A DNA stretch of 64,000 nt, taken from the NCBI GenBank assembly GCA_918797485.1, contig CAKKNE010000002.1, positions 1,054,001 to 1,118,000 on the forward strand, read 5' to 3'. The DNA comes from Pelagomonas calceolata (taxonomy: Eukaryota). The stretch's first letter is position 1. Each line of letters opens with the position of its first letter. This document shows, one piece after another, positions 2,513-57,771 of this stretch. A program made the position numbers and the translations under genes. Below the pieces are notes generated by a model that was not told the origin of the DNA, did no database searches, and saw only the letters and a list, made by a program, of their open reading frames with translations.

Positions 2513-3589
2513 CTAGTGGTAGACGGGTCCGACGCCCGGCGCGACGCCCAGTGCCCCTAGCTCGGTCGCGTCTGCCGCCGTGACCTCGTGCTCGGGCTGC
2601 TTCGAGGCGAACTCCTTCCCGACCTTGTCGGCGTAGAGCGTCGAGTCCGTCCGCGGCGGCCGCGGGTGGCCCAGGTTGTCCTTGATGCGGTCGAGCGCCG
2701 CGAGCTCGGCGCCGGCCTTGACCTGCGCGGCGGCGCCGCGGTGACGGCGCTGCCGGCGAATCCGCGCGCAACCCGACCGTCGATGGCGTGCAGACACGGA
2801 GCTCGCACCGCCTTACAAAACGGCGCGACCTGGTCCTCGTCACTGAATTTGAGGACGTACTCGGCGCCGCCGTGCCTGTGCGGACAAGTCGACTTTCACG
2901 CCGCCATCGACGCGACGTCGCCTCGATGGCGTTTCGGTCCACGGACCCGAGTCGCTGGGATTCGACACAGCCTCGCGCATCTTCTTGTAAATGAGGACCT
3001 TGTGCGGGTCCGACTCGACCTCGGCCGCGAGATCCGCGAGGGGCACGGCGAACTTGGGCACGGCGCCCTTCGTCGAGCCCGGCGGGAAGGCGAAGAGGTG
3101 CGTGCCCTTGACGAGGACGTGGACGCCCTGGCGCGACGCGCAGCAGAAGCATAACGGCACGTCGCGTGCCAACTCGGCGTCGCCCTCGAAGTTGGCGCCC
3201 GTGCGGCCGCGGACGCTCTCGAGCGAGCCGAACTTTTGAGGTGTGCGCTTCGACGACGACAGTCCGAGTAAATCAGACGCGGACTTCATGAGGCCGCGGC
3301 CAAGCGAGCGCCGCGGCTTGACCGCGGGCTTGGCCGGCGGGAATTGTGCGGGCGTCTTGCCGGCGGGCGGCGTCGTTTTCTCCTCGGCGCCGTCGGCGGT
3401 GCCGTACTTGTCGAGGGCACCGGCCTCTGGCGCGTCGGCCGTGCGGTAGACGGCCTGCGGCGTGGCCGGCTTCGCGTCGTCGACCTCCGACAGCGTCGAG
3501 CCTGTCGGCGTCGGTGTCTTGTCGACCGGCGCGTCGGCCACGTCGACGTCGACGTCGATACCGTCGGTCTTGGATTCTGAGGCGCCCAT
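2513..3589 (-). CDS. N-myristoylated PH-domain-like protein; exons 3589-2979, 2875-2809, 2722-2513
   Basis: Starts MGASESK (myristoylation consensus). Removing two introns joins ...HVLVKGTHLFAF...PKFAVPL...KVLIYKKM|HGGAEYVLKFSDEDQVAPFCKA|VKAG..., a PH-like strand/helix pattern in one continuous frame. Confidence 0.7.
2723..2808 (-). mobile_element. Degenerate introner-like intron (86 bp, GT-AG)
   Basis: GTGCGAGC...CGCAG. Contains the ACGCCATCGACG core and its removal restores the frame. Inverted ends and duplication are mostly decayed. Confidence 0.55.
2876..2978 (-). mobile_element. Introner-like intron (103 bp, GC-AG)
   Basis: Ends CTGTGTCGAATC / ...CCGCACAG, 8-bp duplication GCGCGAGG vs GCACGGCG, internal hairpin CGCCATCGA...TCGATGGCG. 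Confidence 0.7.
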
Positions 3590-3947: not shown

Positions 3948-5519
3948 ATGCCGCCCTCCACGGCGACGCATGTGATCGATGCCGTCGAGCGTCGCGTCGC
4001 GGCCGCGGTCGCCGTCGCCGGCGGCGGCGCAGCGCTCGCCACAGTGCTCCTACGTCTACTCCTCTGGCAACCCCTCAACATAGCTCAAGCGCTGTGCGTG
4101 GGCCTGGCCGTCGCGGCGTCATTAGCGGCCTCGATGCTGCTCGCCGGGCCCGTGGCCTTCGCGGCGCGCGAGCCGGCGCGGCGCGCAGCATTCTCAATGC
4201 TAGGCCGCGCGGCGGCGGGCGGCGCGGCGGGCGCGATCATGGGACGGGGCGTCGCCGGTGAATTGCTGGGAGGCGCCGTCGCGGGTCTCAGTGATGCGGT
4301 GGCCCGGGGCTGCATGACCCTCGGCACGCGGCCGGACCGCCGCATGGTTTCTGATGTATTGATAGCTTCGTTCATCGCTGCTTTACGGTCGGCGTGCGGC
4401 GCATCCCTCATAGCGCGGGCCTACGGCGACGAATCGAGATATGTTGAGCTGTGGATAAGGAGCGCATTAAGTGCCCTGGCGACGCACCTCCTCTGCGATA
4501 TTTCAAGAAGGTGGCTCGCCTACGCGTGCCGCCAGCCCATTGATATGAGAAGCATTGCCGAGCGCGTGCCCGATAGACGGTTCCAGCCGAAGACGGAGTG
4601 GTCAGTAGCGCTGGCCGTCGAGGCATCAGAATTAGGCGACCCCATCACGGCAAAGACGAAGCGAATCAATGCAACAAAAAAACGGAGCGGCTTCGTCGCG
4701 CGGTCGTCAGCAGACCCCTTCGCGGCCGCGTCGAGTCAGACGCAGCCCTGGCGCGTGCGCATTGATATGCGGCGGCAGGCGTTGCAGGCGGCCGTCACCC
4801 AGGCCTTCGCCAAGGAGACGTCCGTGGACTTTCGAAGTGCGTGGCTCGCGCCCTTTTCAGCGCTCGACCTCGCGTCGGGCGGGTTAATTCTGGGCGACGC
4901 GGCGCTGGACGCGTCGCATCGGCTGGCGAAGTGGCTTTCATTAAGGGCGTTGGGGGACGGGTTGTTGGAGGTTGCGGACGATTCTGCGAGGGACCGGGCG
5001 CTGGACGTCGCGCTGCTCGTGTTGGACGGCCTCACGGTACGTGTAGATTTAGCCACGAACCACGTGGAACGGGACGCGCTGGGTACTGTTAGGGAAGACA
5101 CGCTGGCCTGTGCGATCCGGAAGGGGCGCGCGACCCCGAAAGACCGGTCCTCGCTGCCGGCGTGGCTCCTCGATCTCATTGATCCGCGGCCGCAGCCGCG
5201 CGTCGGCAATCTGATGGTGTCGGCGGCCGAGTGTTCGGCCTGCGCGGCGGCCGCTCGTATCGTGGCCACGTGCTCTTCCTTCAAGAGGGACGGCGCGGCG
5301 CGCGCGGCGGCATGCCTGAACTCGCTCGCCGGCGCGCAGCGGGCGCTGGGCGGCGTGCCGCCGTCTCCAGATAGAGACGCGCTCATGCTCGACGTGGCGC
5401 ACGCGACCGATTCGTTGTGCGCGGCGTTCCGCTCTGATTTATCTCGCTTCGCGTTCGCGCCGGAGTACGCGTCGACGCTGCGGCGGCACGCGGATGCGGC
5501 GGCGTATAACTATAACTAG
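3948..5519 (+). CDS. Multi-pass membrane protein, possibly Ndc1-like nucleoporin
   Basis: 523-aa ORF with several N-terminal hydrophobic helices and a helical C-terminal domain loosely recalling Ndc1. The family call is tentative. Confidence 0.5.
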   Translation: MPPSTATHVIDAVERRVAAAVAVAGGGAALATVLLRLLLWQPLNIAQALCVGLAVAASLAASMLLAGPVAFAAREPARRAAFSMLGRAAAGGAAGAIMGRGVAGELLGGAVAGLSDAVARGCMTLGTRPDRRMVSDVLIASFIAALRSACGASLIARAYGDESRYVELWIRSALSALATHLLCDISRRWLAYACRQPIDMRSIAERVPDRRFQPKTEWSVALAVEASELGDPITAKTKRINATKKRSGFVARSSADPFAAASSQTQPWRVRIDMRRQALQAAVTQAFAKETSVDFRSAWLAPFSALDLASGGLILGDAALDASHRLAKWLSLRALGDGLLEVADDSARDRALDVALLVLDGLTVRVDLATNHVERDALGTVREDTLACAIRKGRATPKDRSSLPAWLLDLIDPRPQPRVGNLMVSAAECSACAAAARIVATCSSFKRDGAARAAACLNSLAGAQRALGGVPPSPDRDALMLDVAHATDSLCAAFRSDLSRFAFAPEYASTLRRHADAAAYNYN

Positions 5520-8834: not shown

Positions 8835-10045
8835 ATGAGGCTGCTGCTGCTCATCCTTAGCACCACCACAACACTGGTGCAGCCACGCACCGAGTTCCTC
8901 AAGTGTGCGCATCGACTCAAGGCGTACGGCGCGGCATGGCTCGCGCGCACGGAACTCCTCGCGCGCCAGCCCCTGTCTCAGAACAAGGACGCTCTTGAAT
9001 ACGCCTCGTTCCACATATTAATATACAGCATGAGATTGGGCGCTACGGCACTGAAGGCGGTGGACGACAGCTGGTGGGTGAACCACATCAGTGGCTACGA
9101 ACACGGCGTCTTCAGGATGAAAGGAAAAGAAGCGTCCGACACGAATGTGAACGCCATGGTAGAAATACTCACAAACAAACTGTGTGTACCCAGAACGACG
9201 CCGCCGACGTCGACGTTAGCATTAATACCCTTCTACGGCGGCCTCACGCGGGACGGCGCGCGCGACCGCGGAATCGACGAAGAAACGCCGAACACGGGGA
9301 CGGCCCATAGCGTGTCGAGTGGCGCGACGAAGCTGAAAACGCTGAAAGCCGTGCTTTGTTCGGCTCTATCGTTCTGCAAAGCCGCTCTGGTTGGTGTCCG
9401 TGTGGAAATCAAAATTTTACGGCGCGTTCGTGCTGAATCGTTGCGTCGTCCTCCACGCCATCGACGCGACGCTTGCTCGATGGCGTGGCGATGCTGGTTC
9501 CTCATCGCTCGACGGGGCCAGCACGGCCGTGTCATCGCCGTGAAATGACTTCGTGAAGAATTATTGGGTGCACCCAACGCACTGGTTTGATTTCCACACA
9601 GGTCGGCGTCTGTACCCCCGGAGACTACGAGTCTGTTAATGAATTAATAAGGACGCTGCCCGCCGGTCAAGCGCGGGCCGTGCTGTTGAACTGTGCGAAA
9701 GCACCGGCCTACACCCCATATAAACTTCTACGAATGGTCCAGCGCCACGCCAAGGGAAATTTGAACGCGTCGCAAGTCGCGCCGGCCGCGCGCGGTGTCG
9801 TGCCGTGGCTATCGTCTCTCGAGTACGAATTCGTTCTCTACGACGAGGCGGACCAGACGCTCCACTTCGAAGGCACGGCGTTGCGCGACGTCTTCGACGT
9901 TCTGACCCAGCACCCCGATTACTACGTGGCCCCGCAGCGCTACGAGAAGGGGTGGGGCGGCATCCCGCGGTTCGTTCTTCAGGGGAACTTGTCACGGTCG
10001 ATGAACAAGTGCGAGCGATCCTTGCCGCGGCTGGCGTATACATAA
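8835..10045 (+). CDS. Secreted hypothetical protein; exons 8835-9389, 9602-10045
   Basis: MRLLLLILST signal peptide. The spliced join ...CKAAL|VGVCTPGD... links two listed ORFs. A VLYDEADQ segment may be a glycosyltransferase-like acidic motif (weak). Confidence 0.7.
9390..9601 (+). mobile_element. Introner element intron (212 bp, GT-AG)
   Basis: Inverted ends CCGTGTGGAAATC (9398-9410) / GATTTCCACACAG (9589-9601), duplication GTTGGTGT vs GTCGGCGT. Interior is homologous to 27921-28076. Confidence 0.9.
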
Positions 10046-22861: not shown

Positions 22862-25800
22862 ATGGAGGCCCTGGTCAACTCCCTCGACACCGCCGCGCTG
22901 TCGCGCGAGCAGCTCGAGGCCGAGGTGACCAGGCTGCGGTCCGAGAACGGCCAGCTGCGGATGGACACCGACGATCCCTTCCAGCTCCTGCGCGATTTAC
23001 CAGAAGACGAACCGCGGCCGTCGCCATCGAAATTTAATAGAGGCAAGGCCAGCGCGTCCGGCGAGCGGCGCGCGAGCACCGCGCGCCGCGAGCCCCTCGG
23101 ACCGCCACCGCCGCGCCGCGGCACGCTCGACATCACGAAGTTCTTCGCCCCCGACGAGGCGGCGCGCTACCGCCGGTGCGCCGACAAGGGCGCCGCCGAG
23201 GCCGCCGTGCGAGCGGCTCGAGCCGCGGAGAAGGAACGCGCGAAGCCGCCCGACGTCATCGGGGAGTGGGCGGCGCGCCACCCCAGCAGCGGTGAGATCG
23301 CCCAATTAGGTGGAGAGATGGTCGCGGCCGTTAGCCGAGGCACGACGTCATTACCCCTGGACCAGCTCGTGCAGATGGGCTTTGAGCGAGGAGCGGCGGC
23401 CGCAACTTTAGTTGCTTGTAGTAATGATGTGGCCCAGGCCGCTACTCTGTTGACTGAGGCTTCTGAAATGGCACGTATAAAAAGGGAGGAGCATCTGCGG
23501 CGCGATAAGACGTGGCGCAAGCGTGGGCAGTACGAAGCCAAACAGGCGGGCCTCGACCACAAGGGCCCGCAGCATGTCGCTGCTCTCGCATTAACACAGC
23601 CGACGATCCCTCTGGCATTGCTGGAGGCGCCGTCCGTGGACTGCGTCTGGGACTTTATTGAACAGACGAATCAGGAGTACGACCGGCTGCACGAGGCTTA
23701 TGAGCGGCAGTTCTGGGGCGAGCGCATGGCTCTGTCGTCGTCAGACTACTCTCCTGAGAATGAGTCTGCTTCAAAGGAGGCCCTGGAGGCCTTCTTACGA
23801 GATTCTGATCGATTAGCGAAGTGCCATTCACTAAAAGAGGGCCTGTTCACGACGGAGAGACAGAAAAGAATACTAGACGGCTTCGTGCGCGTCTTTGATG
23901 CTTACCAGATGGACCCGGCCGCTGTGAGCATGAGAAGCGACTGCGTGCCTCTGGAACGGGCGCTCACGGAGGCCCGCAAAGCATTAATACTTTCGGTCGA
24001 CGGCCCGAAGTCGGCGCCGCAACTACGGACTCTGTTAAGGACGTCTGCCGATGAGAACACGAGGGAACGGGCCTGGAAGGAACTGCGGAAGGTCGGGCCC
24101 TGTATTGCGGACGGATTGTGCGCGTTAGTAAAAAGACGCAATGCGATGGCGCGCGCGCTCGGCTTCGAAGATTTTTACGACTACAAGGTCTCAAAAACTG
24201 AAGGCTTCGGGAAAAAGAAATTGTTCGGCATGTTGGACGCGTTGAGAGACGGCACCACTACTCTCAATGATCGAGCTAGAGCGTCACTATCCGAAGATGA
24301 TAGGAAGCCGTGGAACGTTTCGCGAGCAACTTCTGGAGACGAGGCGCAACTAGACGCCTACTTCCCCTTCGGCAAGGCGCTGGAGGCCTGGGGGCGTTCC
24401 TTCGCCCAGATGGGTATTCGGTATAGGGGGAGTACGATGACCCTAGATCTACTAGAAAGACAAAACAAGTACAGTAATGGCTTCTGCCACTGGCCTCGCT
24501 GTGCTTACGTGCGACGCGACCATTCGTTACGACCCTCGTCCACGAACTTCACGTCGTTGTGTGATCCTCTGCAGACCGGCTCCGGTAGAGTAGCGTTGAA
24601 GACGCGCGTGCCGGTGTGGAAATCAACCAGTGAGTCAGGTTGTCTTCGCGTCGACGGCGTCTGAGCGTCGTCGAGCCCTCCACGCCATCGACGCGACGTG
24701 TTTCCCACTTCTCGCTGAGTGAGAGCGGTCGCGTCTCGCGATCTCGGCACCGCGGCCATGTTTTCGGCTCAAACGCGGACACGACCGCCGAGCGATGCAC
24801 GCAAACCCCGAGAGACCCCGAGCTGAAGCTTGAACTCACGCAGGCTCATGCACGAGGCCGGCCACGCCGCGCACTTCGCGAACGTCGCGCAGGAGTCTCC
24901 TTTATTTGCGCAGGAACGAGCACCAACATCAATAGCCTACGCCGAAACCCAAGCCATGTTCCTGGATTCTCTTGTGAGTGACGCGTCGTGGCGGTGTCGA
25001 TACGCCCTCAATGCGAGTGGTGAGCGCTTACCCTTTGCGTTGCACGAGGCCGATCTACGCTCAAGGCACCCGTACCAAGTGTTTCAGCTGCGAGCGTTGC
25101 TGGCGGTACCCTACTTCGAGAAGGCGCTCTACGAGCACGCTGATTTGACGCCGGAATCCATCATAGCATTGGCCGATCAGGTCGAGCATGACATCGTCGG
25201 CGGCTTGGCCCCGCGACCGCTCCTCAGCGTGCCGCACATTCTGAGGGATGAGTCGTCGTGTTATTACCACGGTTATGTATTGGCCGAGATGGCCGTGCAG
25301 CAAACGCGAAGACACTTTGGGAGTAGTATCGTGGACAACCCGTCGGTCGGCGAAGCGCTCACGCAAGCTTATTGGAGGCCCGGCAACACGGCGGACTTTT
25401 TTGAGTTAGTAGAGAAATTGACGCATGAACCGTTATCTGGTAATGCGTGGATTAGCTCATTGAATAGGGACGTGGATGAATTAGTGGCGAGCGAGCGCCG
25501 AGCGTACGATGACGCTATCGTCACAAGAGAGGACGTCGACCTAGATATGAGGATTCGGATTGTGGACGGCGATGATGTCATAGCGGACTCGGACGAGTGC
25601 GGTTCATTTCTAGCGACGTGTCGAGTCTTCGAGGCGTACCTCGAGAAAAGGTATGGCGATGGTATGGATAGAGGTCATGTTATGAAGGAGACAATTGTAC
25701 AAAGAGAGGAAGTCCCTGTGGAAGAGCCGCGCCGCAAACGAAGTGCAGCAATAGCGTGGGGCCTCGACAGGCCCGACAAGGCGTCGGTCATCATCACGAA

Positions 25801-27283
25801 GGTTGGGTATGACATGGTCGAGTCCTTTCATATCGAAATGACGGAAGGCGACACGCTCGAGCAAGGTGGAAGGATCAAGGGTGAGACCGTTTCAAGTGTA
25901 AAGCCGTTCCGGGCGTATAAGCGACCGAAGCCGACGGATCGGACGGAGTGGACGCGCTGGAATAATGATCAGGAACTTCTGATCGGGCGGGGCGAGGACA
26001 CCCAACCGGAGGAGTGGCGCTTTAAGTTTGCCTGGCGCGGGTGCGACTTTGTGGTGGCGGGGCCGTCCTGTCTCGATCGAAGGAGGAAGAAGTTTCAAGA
26101 GGACAGTGAGAAGAAGCGGCTGAGGGCATTGCCGAAACGCATCAGAACGCTGGGCGACGCCGCTACCGACGCGTTTCTCAACGGCGATATGCAACGGGCC
26201 GCGGACTTGAGGACCGTCCGGTCTTCACTGGTCGAGGAACATGCTTCCCTGAAGGAGAAGCACCCCTCCGACAAGCTCCTCAAAAAACTGAAAGCAATAA
26301 ATGCGCGCATCGACATGGTCTCGAAACCGATTGGGGGCGCCGTCAAGGGTGGGTACGGGGATCAGGCCCGTTTTTGTGGAAGATCTCTCTTACCGTTGTT
26401 CGACGAACGGGACAAGCTCGAGGGCCAGCTCGCGGAGCGCCTCGGGTTAAAAAGAAAGATCCCGGAACTTCGCGACCGAAGTGGACTCGAGGCGAAAATG
26501 GCGTCGGACGGCTGGACGACGGAGGAATCGATGAGGGAAGATAATGGGCGCGTCGACCGCTTCTACCTGTCGCCGAGCGGCGGCAAGAAGCTGCGGTCGA
26601 TCCTGGAGGTCGCGCGCCACGCCTACCCGGAATTTCTCGTGGAGCCGGTCAAGAGCGACGAGGGCGGCCCGGCCCTCTGGCACGGCCGCGCGGGCCCCGT
26701 CGTGCCTTTGGCTGCGCCGGCGGTGCCCCAGGGCGGCCGCGTGCGCAAGCAGCCGCGGCTCCAGACGGGGCCGGCGCCCGCCCAACTGCGCCTCGCGACG
26801 CGCCAGGGCGGCGTCGCCCTGGGGCCGGCCACGGCCCTGCCGGCGTGGCGCGAGGCGGGCCTGCTGCGGACGGCTTCTGGGTATAACCCGCTCGTCCGCC
26901 TGCCCAAGAGCGTGCTGCCGAAGAGCCTCTTCCCTTCCGTAGAACTGCCTCCATCAAAGTGGCGGCCGGGCATGCGCGTCGTCGTTCCCGCGCGGGCCTT
27001 CGGCGAGGAGTGGGCTTTGGAAAACCCGGGCGACTACCCCGGGACGATCGTGGAGCTCGACGAGGAGTGCGCCGCGGGGCGGACGTGGCTCGTCGACTAC
27101 GAGGACGGGCCGACCTCGACGGACGAGGCCTTCTTCGTCGAGGCGCCGTCGCCGATGGAGGAGGACGAGGCCTCCGAGGCGCCGGCCGCGCCGCCGGACC
27201 CCGCGTACCAGGACCTCCCGCTCTGCCGCGACGAGGGGGAGGCGCTGCTGCGCGGCGCGCTCCAGGATTTGATGGAATTGTAA
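22862..27283 (+). CDS. UBA + M3-family zinc oligopeptidase + MBD-like + Tudor-like fusion; exons 22862-24603, 24844-27283
   Basis: UBA LDQLVQMGFERGAAAATLVACSNDVAQAATLL. Spliced ALKT|LMHEAGHAAH (HExxH), AETQAMFLD and YYHGYVLA are M3 peptidase motifs. GWTTE...RVDRFYLSPSGGKKLRSILEVARH is MBD-like and WRPGMRV...YPGTIV...WLVDYEDG is Tudor-like. Confidence 0.8.
24604..24843 (+). mobile_element. Introner element intron (240 bp, GC-AG)
   Basis: CGGTGTGGAAATCAACCAGTGAGTCA start shared with the 46127 element, duplication GCGCGTGC vs GCTCATGC. It contains an in-frame stop and sits just before the HExxH motif. The 3' inverted end is decayed. Confidence 0.85.
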
Positions 27284-27285
27284 TG

Positions 27286-28769
27286 TTATGTGGAGATACT
27301 TAGCATCGCGCTCGCGGGCGCGACCACTCCCTCTCCCCAGCCGACCTCGCCGACGCCCGGCACGCAGGAGTACTGCTTCGCGACGTAGGGCGGCAGCATG
27401 TGCGTCAGGTCCGGCCGCCGCGGATTCACGTCGTAGAACGCAGACCAGCCGCACCGGTAGCGCGGCACGAAGGCGCCGCCCTCTCCGAGGAGCAGCGGCG
27501 CCGGCGCGACCGGAAACGGGGTGCACGGCGGGCACGTGTCGCGGTCGGGCGCGTCCGCGGGGCAGCAGACGGCGGCGACGGTAGTGAGCCGGTCGCGGCG
27601 CTCCCGCGGATAAGCCAGGCACGCCTGGACGTAGCGCACGCCATCTATAGTAGCATCCCAGCCGAAGTGCGTGTGGCCGAAGACGTGCACGTCCGGCTGC
27701 AGGCGCGCGACGCGCCGCTCGAGGAACGTCGAGCCCACGGCCTTCGCGAGCGCCGGCACGAACAGGTACCGCTTCTCAGGAACTAATTCAGGGCGCGGGA
27801 CGAAGTGCGAGAAGGTCACGAGCGGCAGTGAGGGATGTGCCCGGCGCAGCGCGGCGATGGCGCCATCATCGTTGCGCGCGTCCAGGGCCTCCGCGACCGA
27901 GTCATCCGTTTGCGAGAGGCCTGTGCATAAATCAAAATTTCACGGCGCGTTCCACGCCATCGACGCGACGCCTGCTCGATGGCGTGGCGATGCCGGTTCC
28001 CCATTGCTCGACGGAGCCAACACGGCCGCGTCATCGCCGAGAAGTGCACCCGACACACTGGCTGATTTCCACACAGAGACAGACCCGGGAACTTGCAGAG
28101 GTAAAAGTCCGAGATAACCTGGGATGCGGGCGGCAGGCCCGCCCAGCCCGTCACCTCGGGCTCGCGGTCGAAGGCCGCGTGGTGCCAGGCGCAGAGCGGC
28201 GCGACCACACAACCGCCCATGATGGCTGGTGTGCGGCGCACGCCGAGCTCGTCGCACAGAGCGTCGACCGCTCGCAATTTGCTGAGCGAGTCGGCCCAGG
28301 GCTCGCCGCGCGTGACCCAGACGTCGTGGTTGCCCGGGACAAAACTCACGTCAGCGAAGGCGCGCTTGCACAGTTGTAACGTCTCCCTTAGAATCGAGAA
28401 GCGCGACGACACGTCGCCGGCCAAGATGAGGCCGTCCCGTCGCAAGTCCGTCCTTGAACACATACGTTTTAACCAGTCCAGGTTCTCCCCATGGTCCGTG
28501 TGCACGTCGGAGAGGGCCCAGAGCCGCGGCGGCGGCTCCGGACCGGCTTCCGGCGGCGGGGGCGGCGGCAGATCAACTGGCGCGTCGGCGAGGCACTTCG
28601 CCGACGCCCAGCCTTTCAACGGCGCCAGCACTTCCCGCCGCGCGACGCCGTCGTGGAACGCGGACTCGCCGCAAGTCAGCACCGTCCCCTTCGGCAGCTC
28701 GCCTATGACGTCGGACGCCAACGAAGGCCCCGCTCGGACCAGCGCCGCCTTGTTCTTCACGATCAGCAT
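27286..28769 (-). CDS. SH3-like + calcineurin-like metallophosphoesterase; exons 28769-28085, 27920-27286
   Basis: SDVH, LAGD, PGNHD, FSHF and FGHTH motifs. N-terminal VRAG...GELPKG...GWAS is an SH3b-like module. Spliced join FPG|LSQTDDS. Confidence 0.88.
27921..28084 (-). mobile_element. Introner element intron (164 bp, GT-AG)
   Basis: Ends CTGTGTGGAAATC / GATTTATGCACAG, duplication GTCTGTCT vs GCCTCTCG. Same subfamily as 9390-9601 but in the opposite orientation relative to its host gene. Confidence 0.9.
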
Positions 28770-29041
28770 CACTTCCTCGGTTGGGCATCGGGCGCCTCCG
28801 GATCGCCCCCGGGAACCATCATGGCCACGTTGTTGCCATTCAACAAAATCTGGTCGAGTTTTGTTTTTTCCCGACCGCGCGCCGTCACGACGTACTCCGT
28901 CACATCATCTAAGACCATATTAACAAATTCGTCGAAGCCGCGCAACGTACCCACCACTTCCTTGTCGCCCTTCATGATGACCCAGATCCTAGAACCGATG
29001 CACTTGTCTACCAACTCGAGGGGGAGGAGGCGGCCGGCCAT
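28769..29041 (-). CDS. LSM5: U6 snRNA-associated Sm-like protein LSm5
   Basis: [46 protein letters not shown]...[18 protein letters not shown]. Confidence 0.97.
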
Positions 29042-29237
29042 TTTTTTGTCGTTTGTGGCGTGTTTGGTGCGGCGCGGCTGTCGAGATGTTGTCGCTGCTG
29101 CTGGATTGGTGCGGCGCAGCGCTTGTGGAGATGCCGTGGCGTGCTGTGGGCAACGCTGTCAGTCTGTCAAAGGCACGAGTGGTGCACGTAGCGCGTCGTA
29201 TTCGCTGGCGCGGCAATTTGGTCCCAGGAGGCTTTTT

Positions 29238-29259
29238 GCTAGTGTCTTTCAACGCTAGC
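29238..29259. promoter_or_regulatory. Motif P copy (reverse, variant)
   Basis: GCTAGTGTCTTTCAACGCTAGC, 197 bp upstream of the LSM5 ATG. Confidence 0.55.
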
Positions 29260-29331
29260 CGCGCGCACGTACTCGGGTTTCCAACGCCATCGACGCGAAG
29301 GAATCCACACACAGCCACCACAAAAAAACAC

Positions 29332-30375
29332 TTACGCGCGCGCCGCGTCCTTCCCCGCGTACCACTCGGCCTCGGCCGCGGCCTTCTTCCGGTGCCTCTT
29401 CAGTAATTGCTCCCGTCGACTTTCGACGCGCGCCGCGAGCGTCGATGAATTCAGAGGCGACGGCGAGGCGACCTTGCGCGCCTTGTCGCCCGCACCGGGC
29501 GGCGCGGTGCCGCCGTGGCACACTGTAGAAACGCGGAACGTCGACAACAGCTCCGGCGTGATGTTTAAGGGAGCGTCGATCAGCACGTCGTCGACGTGGC
29601 GGCAGGCCAAGACACTGAGGACGCGTTCCTGCAGGTTCATGAGCGGCAATCGATGACGTCTCTCTTTTACACATTCATCCCCATGGACACCCACCAACAG
29701 GTAATCGCCACATGCTCGACAGGCCTCGAGGAATTTTGAATGGCCGGGGTGGAAGAGGTCCCAGGCGCCGGCCACATACACTACTCTTTCCGTTGGACGA
29801 GGCGCCCGCAGGCCCTCGGAGAATGATGAAAGGATGCGCGCCGTGCCGAGGAAGGCCCGCGACGTGCCGTCCAATTTCAATAATCGACCAACTAAGTCGG
29901 TTGTGGACACGCCCTCCGTCCGCGGTATCGTTTTATACCTTCCCAGGTCCTTCGCGGCCTGGTAGACGTCCTTCCCGTCCACGATGCACGGGTCGTCGCC
30001 GTGCACGATGTAGTCGATACCCTTGTTCTCGAGCAGGTCTCTGACATACGCCTCGTTCATCACATAAGGGACATGAGGTACGACGTCGTCCACAAATTTA
30101 CAAGCTTTGACCGCGGCGCATCTTTCTTCATCTGTGAGTAAGGGTGGCGCGCCCTTCGCCTGCTCGATGGTGCTCGACGAGTTCACGCCCACGACTAGAC
30201 GCGTGCCGAGCGTGCGGCCCTGGCGGAACGCGTTCGCGTGCCCAAAATGCATCACGTCGAAGGCGCCGTCCATCCAGACGGTCGTTTCCTTTGTGGTCGA
30301 GCTTCCTAGGGCGGCGAGGGCCTGCTGCGTCTGCTCCGCGGCGTAGTCGAGCGCGTCTTGGACGAGGCTGGCCAT
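29332..30375 (-). CDS. PCYT2: Ethanolamine-phosphate cytidylyltransferase
   Basis: Two cytidylyltransferase repeats (DGAFDVMHFGHANA, GAWDLFHPGH), HGDDP and RTEGVSTTDLVGR. Confidence 0.93.
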   Translation of the reverse strand: MASLVQDALDYAAEQTQQALAALGSSTTKETTVWMDGAFDVMHFGHANAFRQGRTLGTRLVVGVNSSSTIEQAKGAPPLLTDEERCAAVKACKFVDDVVPHVPYVMNEAYVRDLLENKGIDYIVHGDDPCIVDGKDVYQAAKDLGRYKTIPRTEGVSTTDLVGRLLKLDGTSRAFLGTARILSSFSEGLRAPRPTERVVYVAGAWDLFHPGHSKFLEACRACGDYLLVGVHGDECVKERRHRLPLMNLQERVLSVLACRHVDDVLIDAPLNITPELLSTFRVSTVCHGGTAPPGAGDKARKVASPSPLNSSTLAARVESRREQLLKRHRKKAAAEAEWYAGKDAARA

Positions 30376-48744: not shown

Positions 48745-49437
48745 TTACCTCTTACGCTTCCGTGCCAACAAGTCACCCGGCGCCCTGAACTGGCGGAACG
48801 TCCACGAGATCCGGCGCCCCGGTTCTCCTTCATCTTTCTTGCGGCGCTTCGGGACCCCATGCACGTGTGTCTGCTGGCAGCTGCCGCCCATAATCAGCAG
48901 ATCGCCGTCGCCCAAATACAACTCGAGCGGCACCGAGTCCGCGGCGTCCGCTTCGAGGGACGCGGGCACCTTCTTCCGCGGCTTGAGCGTGAAGCGCCGT
49001 GAAGCGCCCCACGACACGGACGCGACGGGCGCGCTCGGAACCAGCGCGCGCTCGTCGTCTCTATGATCTCCGAGCCAGTGGTCGGGCTCGTACCAGTTCT
49101 GGAGGCAACTGTTCAGGTCGGACCCGGACCCGAGGGCTTCGTTACATTCAGAGAGCAGTTCGCCGCACGCCGTCGTCGATTCAATAGGCGTCGCCTGGGC
49201 GACCTGCCCTGCATACGCGTAGGACACGTCGCCGAAGGCCCGCGAGTAGCGGTTCTCGTAGCAGCGGCGGTTAAACACGACGACTTCCCGCCTCTCGGCC
49301 GGATGCAATTCCCACTCCGCGTCGAAGCGCGCCGGCGTCGACGGCCGCCAGCGGGATACATGCAGCGCCCACGACGCGGCCGAGAGTGTGTGCAGCGTGC
49401 CGCCCAGCCTCGCGTGGAGCTCCGTCGCCTTCATCAT
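48745..49437 (-). CDS. AlkB-family 2OG-Fe(II) dioxygenase (ALKBH2/3-like)
   Basis: NSCLQNWY, HRDDE, VASVSWGASRRF, GDLLIMGG, HGVPK and RISWTFR. Confidence 0.9.
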   Translation of the reverse strand: MMKATELHARLGGTLHTLSAASWALHVSRWRPSTPARFDAEWELHPAERREVVVFNRRCYENRYSRAFGDVSYAYAGQVAQATPIESTTACGELLSECNEALGSGSDLNSCLQNWYEPDHWLGDHRDDERALVPSAPVASVSWGASRRFTLKPRKKVPASLEADAADSVPLELYLGDGDLLIMGGSCQQTHVHGVPKRRKKDEGEPGRRISWTFRQFRAPGDLLARKRKR

Positions 49438-49646
49438 GTGAATTTCTCGAACAAGATGGCCAGCACGATGGCCGCGGCGAAGAACCCGCTCTTTTCGACG
49501 ATGGCTTTCCCCACGACCGGATCGATGCCGCGCCGCTCGTCGGAGTCAGGCTGGGCGTCGAGTCGCGGCGTCCGCACACGCGGCGGCAGCGTGAATGCAG
49601 TGGCAGCGGCCGCAGCGATGGCGAGCAGCCCGTAGCACCGTCGCAT
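49434..49646 (-). CDS. Small plastid-targeted single-TM protein (70 aa)
   Basis: MRRCYGLLAIAAAATA-F (ASAFAP-like), transit peptide and C-terminal hydrophobic helix. Motif P lies upstream. Confidence 0.65.
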   Translation of the reverse strand: MRRCYGLLAIAAAAATAFTLPPRVRTPRLDAQPDSDERRGIDPVVGKAIVEKSGFFAAAIVLAILFEKFT

Positions 49647-49814: not shown

Positions 49815-49837
49815 GCTAGCGGCTGTAAGACACTAGC
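49815..49837. promoter_or_regulatory. Motif P copy
   Basis: GCTAGCGGCTGTAAGACACTAGC between divergent ATGs 49646 and 50057. Confidence 0.6.
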
Positions 49838-50056
49838 AAACCACAAACCCGTGATTAAGGCATATGGTTCGTCTATTAGCTATGGGACATGCTGCCCGAG
49901 GGCTGGGAACGGGCGACTTTTCAGGGCGAGCTGGATACAGGCTTGTTGTTACCCAAGCTGTGCTGGGAGTGGGAGCGTTGTTGTCGTCCGAGCGTTCAGC
50001 AAGCTGCCCCGTGGTCCCTGTGGTCTGTCCTCGGGCGCTGGTGGGCGGGCAGCCCC

Positions 50057-53000
50057 ATGGCCCACGGCCCCTGGGGATCATTGTCTCTGGTGTTTGCTGC
50101 TCTTAGTGTTTGCGGCGCCCTGGGTGGATCCTGCCTCTTCGACTTCGAAGACACCGCCATCGACAGCTGCCCCAGCGGGTGGACCTGCACGGGCGACGCG
50201 CGCGTCGTCTCCCGATACACGTGCGTGTCCGGTTGCGGGACGCCGCTGCCCAACGCCCAGGGCGAGCAGTACTTTTCGATTGGCGGGGACGGCGACACGG
50301 GCACGGCGCAGTCGCCGACGTTCGAACTCCCGTCCGACGCCCAAAGCCTTGAATTCCTGCGGTGCGGCGGCGCGGATTCCCCCTCCGGCGTTTCGGTTCA
50401 CCGCGAGAGCGGCAGCGTGGTCTGCTCAAGCAGTCGCGGCGACGACACGGATTCGTTCTTCTGGGATTCCTGCGACGTCTCCAGCGCCGACGGCGAGAGA
50501 GTCTACGTGCGGATCGTCGACACTCAATCTTCCTCTTGGGGAAAGGTCTTCGTGGACAACATTCGCCTCGACGGCGGCGGCGATGGGTGCGATGATAGCG
50601 GCGATTCTTCGGGTTCAAACTGCGACCGTAGCCTATGCTCGAGCGTCGCCGACGACTGCTGCGCGCCGCTGAGCATTGGCGAGGCGGCGACGTGCCGGAA
50701 CGGCTACGTGGCGCAGCGGACCGGAAACGGGTGCTTTGGGTACGGCGAGGGCGATTACACGTGCTGCTCGACGTCCGCTAGTGATTCAAACTGCGCAGCG
50801 GCGAGCACCGGCGCTTGCCTCGAGGGCGGCGGTGTCGACAACGACTGCTGCGCTACTTGCGGCAACGGGGGCTGCGCGTCTGGTTATACCTATGCTGGTC
50901 AAGTTGTCATCGACAGCGGGACGCTCTCTTCGACGTACCCTGACTTCTACCCTCATTGTGGCACGATGTACTGCGGCAACACGTGCTGCGTGCCGTCGAG
51001 TGGTGGTTCGGAGCCAGACGAGGGCGAGGCCGCGCCCTGCAATGGAGGCCACGATGACGCGGAGCGGATACTAAGCTGTATCAAACAATTCTCCGCCTCG
51101 GAGTGGCTCGGCTGCACCTCAGATGGGAGATACGAGTGCCACTGCAGCAATGACGATGGGGTCAACTACTGCTGCGGTAGCCAGAACCAAGCTGAGGCCA
51201 TCGCGATATGGGAACAATGCCTCGGGGAAGGTGGCTCCTCTACTACTGGATTTACGATCACAAGCTCAAACGTGCATTGGGACGAATGTCCCGGCGAGTG
51301 TGCCGCCATTGGGGGCACATTCGCTTGCATCAGCGACGAGTCGCAGAATGGGCAAGCCTTGGCGGCGTTCGGGGGCAGTTGTCCCGACGGAGCGGACGAC
51401 TGCGGGGCATGGATCGCGGTGAACGATAAGGCGTCGGAGGGCAACTGGATCTGCACGGCCGACGGCAGCACACAAACCTATCAACCTTGGTCTGCCATTG
51501 GTAGTGAACCCAACGGCGGCTCCGGCGAGAATTGCGCGAATATGTGGGGCCCAAACTCGGGAAGAAACGACGGGGCGTGGAACGACTACGGCTGTACCGA
51601 TGCTCGCATGCCATGCATATGTAGGGGCGGGGGCGATGACGAGGACTACTCCTTAACGTACTACGATGACGGGTCGCGCCAGACGTACGAGTGGATGAAG
51701 AGCAGCTGCGCAACAAAGGGCAAGCGCCTGTGCACGTACGGCGAGATTTGCCCCAATGGAGGCCCGCACCAGGCCCCGTACGGCGGACAGCAAGCAAGCA
51801 CTGATATGTGGGCGCCAATAACTCCCGATGCGGGCGAGGGCGGCAGCAGGAACCAGGATTGGGTTCAGATCGGGACGCGTGACGGTGGTATGTGCAACAA
51901 ACACAGCTCGTTTTACGGTGGCGTGCATCCTGACGAGTGCTGCTGTGGAGACTGGTGCAATACGAACGTGCAACAGGTGGCTAAGCGCATATATGCGTGC
52001 TGTGACGGGGAAGGTGGCTCCTCTACTACTACGACCGGTACGAACTGCCGAAGCGACATCTGCACGGACTACGCAGAGGACTGCTGCGCGCCGGACGACG
52101 AGCCCCGCGGGTGCAGCCTCGCGGGCTACGAGGTGCAAGATGACTGGGTGGGCTCGTCGGGCTGGCCATCATGCGTCAGCACGTACGGCCAGGAGTCGGT
52201 GTATCAATGCTGCTCGACGTCCTCGACTGGCTCCTCCGATGCGCTCTTCGTCGCCGGGCCCTCGGGCGGCGACTATCGACGGCGGCGGCGGCGACGACAT
52301 CCGGGCGACGTGTCAGTGCGCCTCGGAATACGAGTGGTGGGACGACCGCCGGCTCTCCGCCGTCGACGAGCCGCGGCGTCTGGGTCACTGCTGCGACTAC
52401 GGTGCGTACTGCTCCTGCATGGAGTCGGAGCTCGGCGCCGGCTGCACTGCGCCCGACTGCGGCGACTGGGACGAGGACGAGGACTGCGGCTCCGACGCAA
52501 CCAGTGGCTCGGACGCAGACGTGACGTGCTCCTTGGTAATCAACGACGAAATTACCGCCGTGTACGTCGACGGGCAGGACGTCACGGACTCTCTCTGCGG
52601 CGAGTGGCCGGCGACGCTCAGATTCTCCAGCGCGGCGAGTCTCTTCGCAATCAGCGGCTACGACAATCAGGGCGGATGCCAGTACGGCGGATTCGCGATG
52701 CGCTGCTCCACGGCGGACGGAACCGGGCCGTGGCACGGCCTGACGGCCGACACGCAGAACTGGCGCGGGACCAACTGGGTCTCTGGGAGCAGTTGGACGC
52801 AACTCGGCTTCGACGACAGTGCCTGGCAGACTCCCTCCGTGGGTGGCGAACCGCAGTACGGGTCCGAACTCGTCGGGGGCGGCGACACGATTTGCGTCGA
52901 GGGCGATTTCTACTTCCGAAGAGAGGTTGATCACCCGACGCCCCTCGAATCGCCCTTCCTCGTCACCGGCGACCTCACCTTCGAAGGCATGACGTACGAA

Positions 53001-53906
53001 GCGGCGCTGGACAACACCAACGTCTTCCTCGCCGCCGTCGCCGATCTCTGCGGCGTGGCCGCGTCCGCCGTGACCGTGGAAATCTCGAGGGCCCGCCGCC
53101 GTCGTCGCCTCGCGGAGGGAATCGTGGTGACGTACACCGTGGGCGTCGCGTCCGCGAACGAAGCTCAGACGGTCACGAGCGCGATTTCGAGCAGCTCGAC
53201 AGCAGACGTCGACGCCGCAATCAGCAAAGCCGCGACGAACGCGGGCGTCGACGACGATTTCGACGGCGTCACGACGACCAACGTGGGTACGCCCACGGCG
53301 ACGGCGTCCGACGACGACGGTGGGTCCTCCAGCGGTAAAGACGACGGGCCGGATGCTGCGTCGGCGGCGACGATCATAGCGTCCGTCGCGGCGGCTATGT
53401 GTGTGGTCTTGATTGGAGTCGTCGGTCTTCTTTACTGGAAGACGCAGCAGGTCCAGGGCCGACCGGTGAGGCCCGTGGGCGCGGTCGCGGTGGAGATGGC
53501 CACGTACGGACAGACGATGGTCGCCCCCAGCTACGTCCTCAAGGCGAACAGCGACGAGGTCTGGCGGGACCCCGCCCCCCGGGCGTCGGCGCCGCCCGGC
53601 CGAAGCTTTTGCATCGACTGCGGTGCGGCGATCCAGGGCCGGTTCTGTGGCGCATGCGGGCGGAATCAGCCCGCGGCGGCTCAGCCCGTGGCGGAACAGC
53701 CACCCTTTGTGGCGCCGACGCTTTTCCGGCGGCAGCCAATGGACAATAATCAAGGCGCGCCGCACAGCCTTCCCGTAGAGATCATCAGCGCCGCCGGACA
53801 AGGGCCGCCGGCCGGCGCTCGACCCGTCCCGCAGGGGTCCGTGGTACAAGGCTCCGTGGTGCAGGGGCCCGCCGTGCAGGAACCCGCCGAGCAGGGGTAC
53901 CTTTAG
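50057..53906 (+). CDS. Cys-rich C-type-lectin type-I membrane receptor, copy 1 (frame break near 52276)
   Basis: Signal peptide MAHGPWGSLSLVFAALSVCGA, beta-sandwich-like FDFE...VFVDNIRL module, CTL with EPN/WND, RRRRRL stalk, TM and cytoplasmic CxxC-x8-CxxC zinc ribbon. Encoded by two overlapping ORFs. Confidence 0.7.
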
Positions 53907-54096
53907 GTCCGTTCGCTTTGTCGAAGAAGAATGATCACTCCCCCTCCCCGCGGCAGATGGTGTTGCCGGCGTCCGCGTATATACCTTTTCTGACAATTGA
54001 CCCAGAGGGGGGCCAACTTAGATCTCGCGAGCAGCCTGTAGCACAGTCCAGGACTCAAGCACTTAAGACTTTTTTGGCAAAACTTGGCTTGGCATG

Positions 54097-54118
54097 GCTA
54101 GCGGCGTAAGACACTAGC
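54097..54118. promoter_or_regulatory. Motif P copy
   Basis: GCTAGCGGCGTAAGACACTAGC, part of the duplicated 5' region. Confidence 0.6.
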
Positions 54119-54361
54119 AAGCAAAATCTGGGGCAAGGCGTATGGTTCGTCTATTAGCTATGGGACGTCGTCCGGAGGGCTTGGGACGAGCGATTTTTTA
54201 GCGCGGATATACAGGCTGATAACACTGAGGAGCTTGGCTTGGGCAACAAGCGCCAAGGAGTAGAGCTTTGTTTATCGTCCGAGTGGTTCGAGAAGCTGCT
54301 TCGTGGTCCCTGTGGTCTGTCCTCGTGCGCTGGTGGGCGCTGGGATCGCTGGGGCAGCCCC

Positions 54362-57300
54362 ATGGCCCACGGCCCCTGGGGATCATTGTCTCTGGTGTTT
54401 GCTGCTCTTAGTGTTTGCGGCGCTATTGACTCTCTCGGCGCACGGCCATCCGTGTCGTGGAACGCCGCGCGCGCAGAGTGCGAGTCCCGAGGCCAGGGAC
54501 TCTGCTCGTCCGAAGAGCTCTGTCCGACCGGTGCGCCGTTCGATGGCGGCGTTGACAGCACGGACACGTGGGTGCCCGTGTCGGACGGCAGCGACGAGTG
54601 GCTTCAGTACGGGAAATGGGCGAACTCGTGGCAGCCAGGACCACTCTGCAGTCTGCACAGCGTCCAGTACGCGCCCGACCCGCATCCCTGCCACACCCAT
54701 CCAGATCCGGCGCGGTACCCAGACGCGGCGAGCTGCGGCCACTCCTTCTTGTACTGCTGTAGCGGCGACGGCAACGATTCCGGGAGCTGCGCCGACGGTC
54801 TCTGCTACACGCTCTACTCGGGCGAGGACTCGCCATCGGAAGCTGAGGACAGATGCGAAGACCGCGGCGGGCACCTCGCCAAGGTGACTACGGCCGGGCA
54901 GGTCGCGACGGTGAAGGACGTGCTTAAGAATGTGCCCGACGGTAACTGCGTCCGCTTCGGCGCGATCAAGGAGGCTGGGTCCTGGCGGTTACTGCGATCG
55001 ACGTTATCGAGAACAATGGCGGGGAATACTGTAGCTGTTACTGGGTAGCGGACGACAACGTCTACGACGCGCCTTGCCACGGAGGGTGGGGCCAGGGCGA
55101 CTACTACCTCTGCGCGACAAGCGAGGGCGATGGCGAGGACTACTCCTTAACGTACTACGATGACGGGTCGGGCCAGACCTACGAGTGGATGAAGAGCAGC
55201 TGCGCAACAAAGGGCAAGCGCCTGTGCACGTACGGCGAGCTTTGCCCCAATGGAGGCCCGCACCAGGCCCCGTACGGCGGACAGCAAGCAAGCACGGATA
55301 TGTGGGCGCCAATAACTCCCGATGCGGGCGAGGGCGGCAGCACGAACCAGGATTGGGTTCAGATCGGGACGCGTGACGGTGGTATGTGCAACAAACACAG
55401 CTCATTTTACGGTGGCGTGCATGCTGACGAGTGCTGCTGTGGAGACTGGTGCAATACGAACGTGCAACAGGAATGGAAGCGCATATATGCGTGCTGTGAC
55501 GGGGAAGGTGGCTCCTCTACTACTACGACCGGCACGAACTGCCGAAGCGACATCTGCACGGACATTGCGAACGACTGTTGTGCGCCGGGCGGCGAGGCCC
55601 GCGGGTGCAGTATTACGGGCTACGAGGTCCAGCCGGATCCGACGGGGACCTCGGGCTACGGGCCTTGCGTCAGCACGTACGGCCAGGAGTCGGTGTATCA
55701 ATGCTGCGCGACGTCCTCGACGTCTGCTGGCAGCGGCTCCTTCGTGTACGTCGATCAAGCGAAGAGCTTCGACGACGCGCGCGCGTACTGCCGCGCGAAC
55801 TATCACGACCTCGCGTCGATCCACAGCTCCAGCGAGAATGCGGCAGTAGCGGCGCTTTGTCCCGGTGAATCATGCTGGATCGGGGGCTCCGACGCGGCCC
55901 AAGAGGGCACGTGGACCTGGTCGGACGGCACGGCGTGGGACTACGACAACTGGGAAAGCGGAGAGCCCAACAACTGGGGAGGCGACGAGCCCTACACCGT
56001 GATCTACGACTCAGGACGATGGAACGACGAGAGCCGCTATGGTACTTACCCATTCGTGTGCGCGACTACATTTACGATCACAAGCTCAAACGTGCATTGG
56101 GACGAATGTCCCGGCGAGTGTGCCGCCATCGGGGGCACATTCGCTTGCATCGACGACGAGTCGCAGAATGGGCAAGCCTTGGCGGCGTTTGGGGGCAGTT
56201 GTCCCGACGGAGCGGACGACTGCGGGGCATGGATCGCGGTGAACGATAAGGCGTCGGAGGGCAACTGGATCTGCACGGCCGACGGCAGCACACAAACCTA
56301 TCAACCTTGGTCTGCCATTGGTAGTGAACCCAACGGCGGCTCCGGCGAGAATTGCGCGAATATGTGGGGCCCAAACTCGGGAAGAAACGACGGGGCGTGG
56401 AACGACTACGGCTGTACCGGTGCTCGCATGCCATGCATCTGTAGGGGCGGGGGCGGTGGCTCCTCTGAGGATCTCTTCGTCGCTGGGCCCTCGGGGGGCA
56501 ATTACTACGACGCGACGGCCTACTGCTCAAGCATAGGCGCATCGATCGCCACCATCTATAGCGCGACCGAGAATGAGCTGGCGCGCCAAGCGTGCGGCGG
56601 CTCGTCGTGCTGGATAGGCCTCGAAGAAGTCGGCGGCAGCGCGTCGACGCCCAAGGCGAGCCAGACGTGGCGGTGGATGGATGGATCGACAGCCAGTTAC
56701 ACGAACTGGGATGATTGGGAACCGAATAATCACGATGGGAACGACGAGAGGAACGCCATGATGAATTGTTGCGGCACAGACGGCGTTGACGCGTCGGGCA
56801 TGTGGCACGACGCGCCGTACAACTACGACGAACCGCGACCCCTCTGCCGCACCGATGATTGCGGCCCATCCTCCGGCGGCTGCGATCCGATCTACAATTT
56901 CGCCGGCGCCACGCGGACGTGCACCTCGTCGAACTACCCCGAAAACTGCATCGTGGTGGTCGAGAACTCGCAGCATGCCGACTGCAATGCGTGGTGCGCT
57001 GCCGCCGGGTCTTGGTGTATTAATGGATGGGACTCCCACGGCGGCAGCTGCGATAACATAGACCAAACGGACGACACTTGGCCCCAGGGCTGCGGCGGCG
57101 ACAACCTTTTTCACGACGGAATATGCATGTGCGCTCCAGTCGGCGGCACGTCGTCCCAAACGGACGGCGGGCCGTGCACGCCGCAGCGCGCCGACAACCT
57201 CGATGACGACGGGCCGGACGCGGCGTCGGCGGCGACGATCATCGCGTGCGTCGCGGCGGCGATGTGTGCGGTCTTGATTGGAGTCGTCGGCTTTCTTTAC

Positions 57301-57771
57301 TGGAAGATGCAGCAGGTCCAGGGCCGGCCGGTGCGGCCCGTGGGCCAGGCGATCGCGGTGGAGATGGCCACGTACGGCCAGACGATGGCCGCCCCCAGCT
57401 ACGTCCTCAAGGCGGCGTCGGCGCCGCCCGGCCGAAGCTTTTGCGTCGACTGCGGTGCGGCGATCCAGGGCCGGTTCTGCGGCGCGTGCGGGCGGAATCA
57501 GCCCGCGGGGGCTCAGCCCGCGGCGGAGCCACCGTTCGTGGCGCCGACGCCGAACCTTTTCCGGCGGCAGCCAATGGACAATAACCAAGGCGCGCCGCAG
57601 AGCCTTCCCGTAGAGATCATCAGCGCCGCCGGACAAGGGCCGCCGGCCGGCGCTCGACCCGTCCCGCAGGGGTCCGTGATACAAGGCTCCGTGATACAAG
57701 GCTCCGTGGTGCCGGGGTCCGTCGTGCAGGGGTCCGCCGTGCAGGAATCCGCCGAGCAGGGGTACATTTAG
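54362..57771 (+). CDS. Cys-rich multi-C-type-lectin type-I membrane receptor, copy 2 (frame break near 54988)
   Basis: Same signal peptide, several CTL domains (WIG, WxWxDG, EPNN, WND/WHD), and the same TM, zinc ribbon and QGSV tail. The frame changes inside a CTL domain (GSWR / VIENNGGEYC). Confidence 0.72.

Follow-up and report, generated by a model that had tools for sequence, protein, structure and literature searches.

An out-of-frame stop/start overlap between LSM5 and a metallophosphoesterase gene in a pelagophyte: a candidate nuclear dicistron

Overlapping nuclear dicistrons are already known, as illustrated by a Drosophila catalogue and by the UGAUG overlap of mouse GAD (available sections of PMC4528330 and PMC5972666). 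As far as its available sections go, the Drosophila catalogue comprises 159 dicistronic pairs with distances of -34 to 319 nt, including 28 'overlap' entries, among which CG33649/DNApol-gamma35 is listed as 'OVERLAP 4 nt' (PMC4528330). For green algae, the accessible text describes bicistrons translated by leaky scanning, with a weak start of the first ORF (ORF1) and few AUGs ahead of the second (ORF2) (PMC11892635), and gives a median inter-ORF distance of 212-260 nt (excerpts of PMC7896298). Termination-reinitiation is represented, in the portions of the literature at hand, by the TURBS of caliciviruses and influenza B and by the cellular cases of mouse GAD and human CASQ2 (PMC5972666, PMC10275272, PMC3923131). 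In the same portions, coupling is demonstrated for five human mRNAs (PMC5972666, PMC3923131), the nascent-peptide sequence is reported to matter for CASQ2 (PMC5972666), and cellular reinitiation after long ORFs is called very rare (PMC5972666, PMC10275272). A literature search conducted mostly outside subscription journals yielded no report on nuclear bicistrons in pelagophytes.

The DNA considered here, referred to as the window, is a 64,000-nt stretch of the Pelagomonas calceolata genome, a GC-rich and gene-dense eukaryotic sequence whose genes have named homologs in Pelagophyceae, including Chrysophaeum. On its minus strand, an intronless LSM5 gene of 90 aa (28769..29041) directly abuts a metallophosphoesterase (MPE) gene. 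LSM5 is identified by Pfam LSM (E=1.5e-22) and by solved structures (PDB LSm5, E=4.6e-36): the seven PDB sequences that reach E<=1e-15 are LSm5 without exception, and its Sm fold sequence is closest to LSm5. The coordinates of the shared A proposed in an initial annotation are confirmed from the sequence, with the LSM5 TGA at 28771-28769 and the MPE ATG at 28769-28767 having the A at 28769 in common, which forms a TGATG overlap of -1 (28767..28771). The overlap is real. RNA reads at a depth of about 48-71 display no alternative letter, indel or joint at this point, and an assembly error at the junction was rejected on these grounds. Since pelagophyte LSM5s elsewhere measure 87-92 aa and have their C-terminal end at about the same point, the overlap does not stem from an extended LSM5 tail. 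The initial annotation had also held that the junction ATG is required, and indeed the next in-frame Met, at 28463 (residue 103), lies past the DxH motif (residues 88-90).

The first MPE exon (28085..28769) encodes an SH3-like N-terminal region, a Pro-rich linker and the first half of a calcineurin-like phosphoesterase (Pfam Metallophos, E=3.4e-7); the earlier 'SH3' label corresponds to a sub-threshold Pfam match (SH3_3, 20.7 bits, where the cut-off is 27). It is followed by a 164-nt GT..AG intron (27921..28084) and by a second exon (27286..27920) containing the GHTH motif and the stop TAA at 27288-27286, so that the spliced product is a calcineurin-like metallophosphoesterase of 439 aa. For the full-length homolog P0126 (residues 79-338), the best solved-structure match is PDB 6unc (E=1.3e-18), with the DxH, GD, GNH, HF and GH motifs lining up. 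We take 6unc to be the mycobacterial phosphopantetheinyl hydrolase PptH. Compared with it, MPE adds the SH3-like N-terminus and a C-terminal extension, and any likeness in substrate would be a prediction from sequence. No functional link between MPE and LSM5 is evident.

The intron joint is documented by 75, 52, 46 and 32 reads in the RNA runs X21 to X24, respectively. The intron belongs to a repeated, introner-like family, with a 91% copy at 9452 in the window, and the relative described below (locus L002) is continuous at the intron site. The repeat (27921-28084, 9452-9547, 2902) has an internal palindrome, and thousands of reads from other copies match the intron, indicating that the family is large. 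Downstream of MPE, a single long plus-strand gene (22862-27283) encodes, within one frame, a UBA domain, an M3 peptidase and an MBD-like domain, and pieces matching this gene occur on the same strand in L002. The convergent stops of the M3 peptidase and MPE genes (27283/27286) are merely 2 nt apart, and their 3' UTRs must therefore overlap each other's coding regions.

In its organization the pair resembles the Drosophila dicistrons, in so far as the catalogue excerpts describe them, since two unrelated nuclear genes overlap out of frame at stop and start; unlike LSM5/MPE, for which short reads are available, the fly pairs have cDNA support, and they concern another lineage and other genes (PMC4528330). 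With the green-algal loci, as represented in the excerpts, it shares a small upstream and a larger downstream ORF, an algal nuclear location and a conserved pairing, but the distances here are -1 and, for a second pair described below, -4, LSM5 as ORF1 has a strong start context, and there is an excess of AUGs. Like the termination-reinitiation cases in the sections cited, it displays an out-of-frame stop/start overlap after a full protein-coding ORF; unlike in those cases, both ORFs are conserved stand-alone genes, for which coupling would be a sequence-based proposal. LSM5/MPE is likely a nuclear dicistron of a known kind.

Conservation of the arrangement was assessed by a metagenome scan that returned ten loci, two of which (L001 and L002) do not differ along the length they have in common and represent one relative; the other eight contain distant phosphoesterases and no LSM5 match. 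Scans of viral and prokaryotic genomes provided nothing useful on orthologous junctions. The relative, with 70% MPE identity, retains the LSM5-MPE gene order. Its LSM5 stop lies one codon later than that in the window and still overlaps the MPE ATG, giving an ATGA junction, while the ATG aligns exactly, 2 nt after LSM5 codon 90 in both species. Conservation in relatives, which the initial annotation had proposed as a check, is thereby found, in this one relative, at the level of both the overlap and the ATG position. The split from the relative is old, given an LSM5 dS of about 2.5 (dN/dS 0.017). For MPE, dN/dS against L002 is 0.20 over residues 1-63, 0.22 in the core and within 0.11-0.22 elsewhere. 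A dN/dS of ~0.2 points to purifying selection on the MPE N-terminus, and the value over residues 1-63 argues that the region after the junction ATG is translated. The Pfam and PDB matches together with the dN/dS values (0.017 and 0.11-0.22) characterize LSM5 and MPE as two independent functional ORFs.

Protein homologs provide a broader view. Among 36 homologs with the MPE N-terminal region, 32 start 1-4 residues ahead of IV[KR]N/VVRN (18 as MIV, eight as MLIV, five as MNAVV and one as MSLIV); gene callers write M for GTG and TTG starts too. Three of the remaining four start within the region; the fourth is an LSM5 read that carries a frameshift and in which Thr takes the place of the Met. A TGATGA junction in the 'MIVK' clade, which makes up 18 of the 36 homologs and is known from proteins alone, is a guess. 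P0060 has the same junction in another assembly. The singletons P0043 and P0058 imply a lost junction ATG, P0043 through loss of both stop and start, and these losses are likely errors.

Two features count against the argument from conservation: the relative's MPE carries an in-frame Met in the linker and a 1-nt deletion ahead of GHTH (L002 ~4933-4942), the latter present in all five cluster members (P0008, P0114-P0117). Past the deletion the original frame is intact (dN/dS 0.2), so the deletion is either recent or an unrecognised recoding site; judged from sequence, the relative's MPE may have been broken recently before GHTH. In L002, a TrmO-family tRNA methyltransferase gene (2750-3439, minus strand) lies between the cytidylyltransferase gene and LSM5, divergent from LSM5, and is absent at the matching place in the window.

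The frameshift in the relative is one of two observations compatible with a quite improbable explanation, namely that ribosomes slip by -1 close to the end of LSM5 and produce an LSM5-MPE fusion or that MPE is a barely translated passenger; the other is that the MPE frame is open for 46 codons ahead of its ATG. However, inspection revealed no canonical slippery heptamer, the upstream extension lacks conservation at the protein level, and a search with the extension plus N-terminus against longer proteins, albeit a weak one, returned no proteins other than MPEs, whose matches begin at the ATG. The dN/dS of 0.11-0.22 along MPE also speaks against this explanation.

RNA evidence was drawn from four stranded poly(A) runs, X21-X24, all made from a single sample; 6-12% of each was compared with positions 27100-29500. 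Reads of X21 and X24 were additionally compared with 28100-29330, together with contigs from two other studies (X2 and X8) whose RNA status is a guess. Transcription proceeds on the minus strand from one clear 5' edge covering LSM5 at about 29206..29227, where five X23 molecules end at 29206 and an X2 contig starts from 29227. Same-strand depth stays above zero throughout from this edge to the MPE end, and falls to about zero at 29234-29275, on which basis read-through from the upstream cytidylyltransferase gene was rejected. The only loose end in the 374 + 422 reads compared is at 29200. Within 28100-29330, no joints occur in these 796 raw reads and the two contig sets among forms with at least three reads. 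Accordingly, fusion of the ORFs by splicing was rejected, and splicing to the AG at 28773-28772, which the initial annotation had named as evidence that would speak against its reading, was not seen in the 796 reads or either contig set. X8 supplies a single 1709-nt contig from 29193 to past 28100, although a contig is not proof of one molecule.

Depth along the pair is uneven, ranging from 24 to 131 over LSM5, from 7 to 35 over MPE positions 28315-28557 and from 57 to 131 over 27748-27909. All four runs share a dip at 28558-28645, with depth falling to 2-10 at 28558-28638, and in all of them LSM5 is covered about three times as deeply as the part of MPE next to it. Fragment 3' ends form small pile-ups at 28608 and 28684, and X2 contigs break at 28543-28562. 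The dip and the LSM5 excess are what would be expected if there were two overlapping monocistronic transcripts, with LSM5 polyadenylated inside the MPE coding sequence and an MPE start site in the 3' half of LSM5, from which MPE would be initiated directly or after a 16-17-codon uORF (LSM5 AUGs 28822/28819), the overlap being a by-product of compaction. This explanation, which we consider unlikely though the most serious competitor, also draws on the climb in depth that X21 and X22 show inside LSM5 as 28800-28880 is approached, on the flies, where alternative monocistronic isoforms are recorded at 114 of the 159 dicistronic loci in the catalogue sections available (PMC4528330), and on the presence of 11 gene starts out of 32 that lack the promoter-like motif P (below) anyway. 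On the other side, X23 and X24 display no such climb, LSM5 has no listed 5' pile-up and no loose ends in its interior, and around 28600-28700 no loose end with poly(A) was seen, though these short-read tests are weak. A 90% GC tract encoding the Pro-rich linker (28530..28570) adjoins the dip, and depth collapses likewise at a second place inside the MPE coding sequence with 73-74% GC (27424-27585), so the libraries do suffer from GC dropout. Separate transcripts also offer no reason why the relative's ATG should have stayed tied to the stop.

Depth was further simulated with GC and 3' bias for five isoform sets, one GC parameter lying at the edge of its grid. One long mRNA reproduces the dip (SS 6.4, 6.4, 8.9 and 8.4), and two isoforms or two transcripts do slightly better (SS 5.2-8.3), the lowest SS in three of the four runs being obtained by a model with an MPE start site at 28800; no model fits well, and the modelling does not discriminate between the five sets. 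A single molecule with both ORFs is compatible with the depth data. A short LSM5-only mRNA ending at about 28600-28700 may coexist with it, and a start site inside LSM5 may be present. The AT content after the LSM5 stop is 0.36 against a range of 0.28-0.66, and LSM5 is not marked as being without a 3' end signal.

A motif of about 22 nt, motif P, occurs in 15 window copies (at most one mismatch over 11 nt), at 410, 3836, 5736, 6959, 8714, 22653, 29238, 30515, 34189, 36227, 37228, 43423, 47223, 49837 and 54118. It is located 50-350 nt ahead of gene starts in either orientation, is often common to divergent pairs, and precedes 21 of 32 hand-picked gene starts by no more than 500 nt; it is likely a core promoter element. 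The copy at 29238..29259 (plus strand, reverse to LSM5) lies some 10-50 nt before the 5' edge of the LSM5 transcript and would serve as its promoter. In 28501-29230 the best match has three mismatches, in agreement with the earlier claim that the only motif P is upstream of LSM5; as evidence for a single promoter this is weak, given that 11 of 32 starts are without the motif. No close motif P copy was found in L002.

Start contexts, scored with a matrix built from 30 hand-picked window starts only, bear on the manner in which ribosomes would reach the MPE start. The start of LSM5 reaches 4.8 bits (4.1 in L002), where the 30 window genes have a median of 2.3, and does not have the weak ORF1 start of green-algal leaky scanning. 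Nor are AUGs depleted ahead of ORF2: nine are observed against 5.3 expected, and seven against 4.1 in L002. The initial annotation had argued against leaky scanning from internal ATGs in LSM5. Eight are present between the LSM5 and MPE starts (four in the LSM5 frame, four out of frame), yet the argument is weaker than stated, because all of them score below the median start context (-4.2 to 0.65 bits). The stronger argument is the very good start context of LSM5 itself.

Translation of MPE by leaky scanning of the green-algal type, or by internal entry, from one bicistronic mRNA and independently of LSM5 termination is an alternative that we regard as improbable. It would benefit from the weakness of all eight internal AUGs and is the mechanism tested in green algae, as the accessible text has it (PMC11892635), and it accounts well for a second overlapping pair in the window. 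It is opposed by the strong LSM5 AUG in both species, by the excess of AUGs, by the weak MPE AUG (0.4 bits) and by an out-of-frame AUG at 28788 that opens a 71-codon ORF spanning the MPE start. A strong LSM5 start and an AUG excess are the opposite of the green-algal signature, and stop-restart is favoured for this reason.

The LSM5/MPE junction shares the overlapping out-of-frame stop and start with TURBS; no known helper of restart is present there. No TGGGA (TURBS motif 1) occurs in the last 150 nt of LSM5 in either species, and a TURBS motif was rejected on that basis. The last 20 LSM5 codons encode 100% identical amino acids while their synonymous sites are saturated (pS 0.79), and no shared RNA fold was detected near the LSM5 end (z -1.6 and +1.1). 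An Asp-rich tail of the CASQ2 type is likewise absent. In lacking UGGGA, a conserved RNA sequence or fold and an Asp-rich C-terminus, the pair differs from the published termination-reinitiation cases as described in the sections cited above. By analogy with the nascent peptide of CASQ2, the perfectly kept LSM5 tail peptide could be important.

The second pair, also on the minus strand, consists of a conserved 70-aa protein (49434..49646) and an AlkB-like 2OG-Fe(II) oxygenase (48745..49437; Pfam 2OG-FeII_Oxy_2, E=3.6e-22), which begins with ATG ATG and thereby overlaps the TGA of the upstream ORF in both manners, as ATGA and as TGATG. The 70-aa protein has a signal-peptide-like N-terminus, a C-terminal hydrophobic stretch and no internal AUG; its 16 relatives in a 50%-cluster library share 37-90% identity and a common DPVxGKAI motif, and it belongs to a 10-member cluster. 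Its AUG is weak (0.7 bits), and a motif P copy lies upstream at 49837. From these sequence features, the pair fits leaky scanning. P0186, a protein from an error-rich contig, reads through the junction. Nearby, at 49889-57771 (plus strand), two tandem gene copies encode Cys-rich secreted or membrane proteins with a DUF7495 domain, partly 97-98% identical.

Both pairs were retrieved in a scan of the window that matched every ATG-led ORF 70 or more codons long with coding-like ORFs of at least 60 codons whose stop fell -12 to +7 nt from the ATG; two loci fit, and both are overlaps. Gaps between same-strand neighbours, across 14 hand-annotated pairs, are -1 and -4 at these two loci and 200-567 nt at the other 12. 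At five of 30 ordinary starts, the first stop in the frame that LSM5 has relative to MPE overlaps the ATG, so an overlap is cheap once ORFs abut in this frame, and the anomaly is the abutting of the ORFs more than the exact pentamer. For the relative, the chance that the overlap would be kept after the stop moved is near 1 in 6, and selection on LSM5 length could be the cause.

Taken with an even chance of being correct, our preferred explanation is that restart on a shared LSM5/MPE mRNA supplies MPE. LSM5 and MPE, separate conserved genes, would be transcribed from a single start upstream of LSM5; ribosomes would finish LSM5 and then restart on the overlapping ATG to produce MPE, probably at low efficiency. 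The in-frame LSM5 AUGs, five in all, share one TGA, so that leaky starts would also bring ribosomes to the restart site. LSM5/MPE reverses the green-algal leaky-scanning pattern. Restart is the simplest route if MPE is made from the long mRNA, and the second overlapping pair within the same 64 kb is counted in its favour. We infer a single mRNA bearing LSM5 and MPE together, with MPE supplied by restart and not by leaky scanning. The coupled-bicistron reading of the initial annotation is partly supported, in that the arrangement is maintained in the relative, and its stop-restart component is at the level of a proposal.

A more far-reaching and rather doubtful extension is that pelagophytes routinely couple nuclear genes in the bacterial way, through -1/-4 overlaps, signal-free restart and relaxed ribosome recycling. 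If this were true, a substantial share of tandem pairs (2/14 here) would overlap by 1 or 4 nt, and restart after a 90-codon housekeeping ORF without TURBS or a peptide signal would imply relaxed recycling in the lineage. A practical warning is that, in genomes of this type, gene callers may fuse the two partners or miss one of them, and RNA-seq counts may do likewise.

The value of the locus lies in its features favouring reinitiation and in a paired contrast within one window, where LSM5/MPE has a strong start and many AUGs and the 70-aa/AlkB pair has a weak start and no internal AUG. Signal-free reinitiation after a full ORF in cellular mRNAs is regarded as an open question in the sections available (PMC5972666, PMC10275272). 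If one mRNA makes both proteins, nuclear dicistrons would be extended to pelagophyte algae, and LSM5/MPE would provide a natural case pointing to stop-restart, as opposed to the leaky scanning of green algae.
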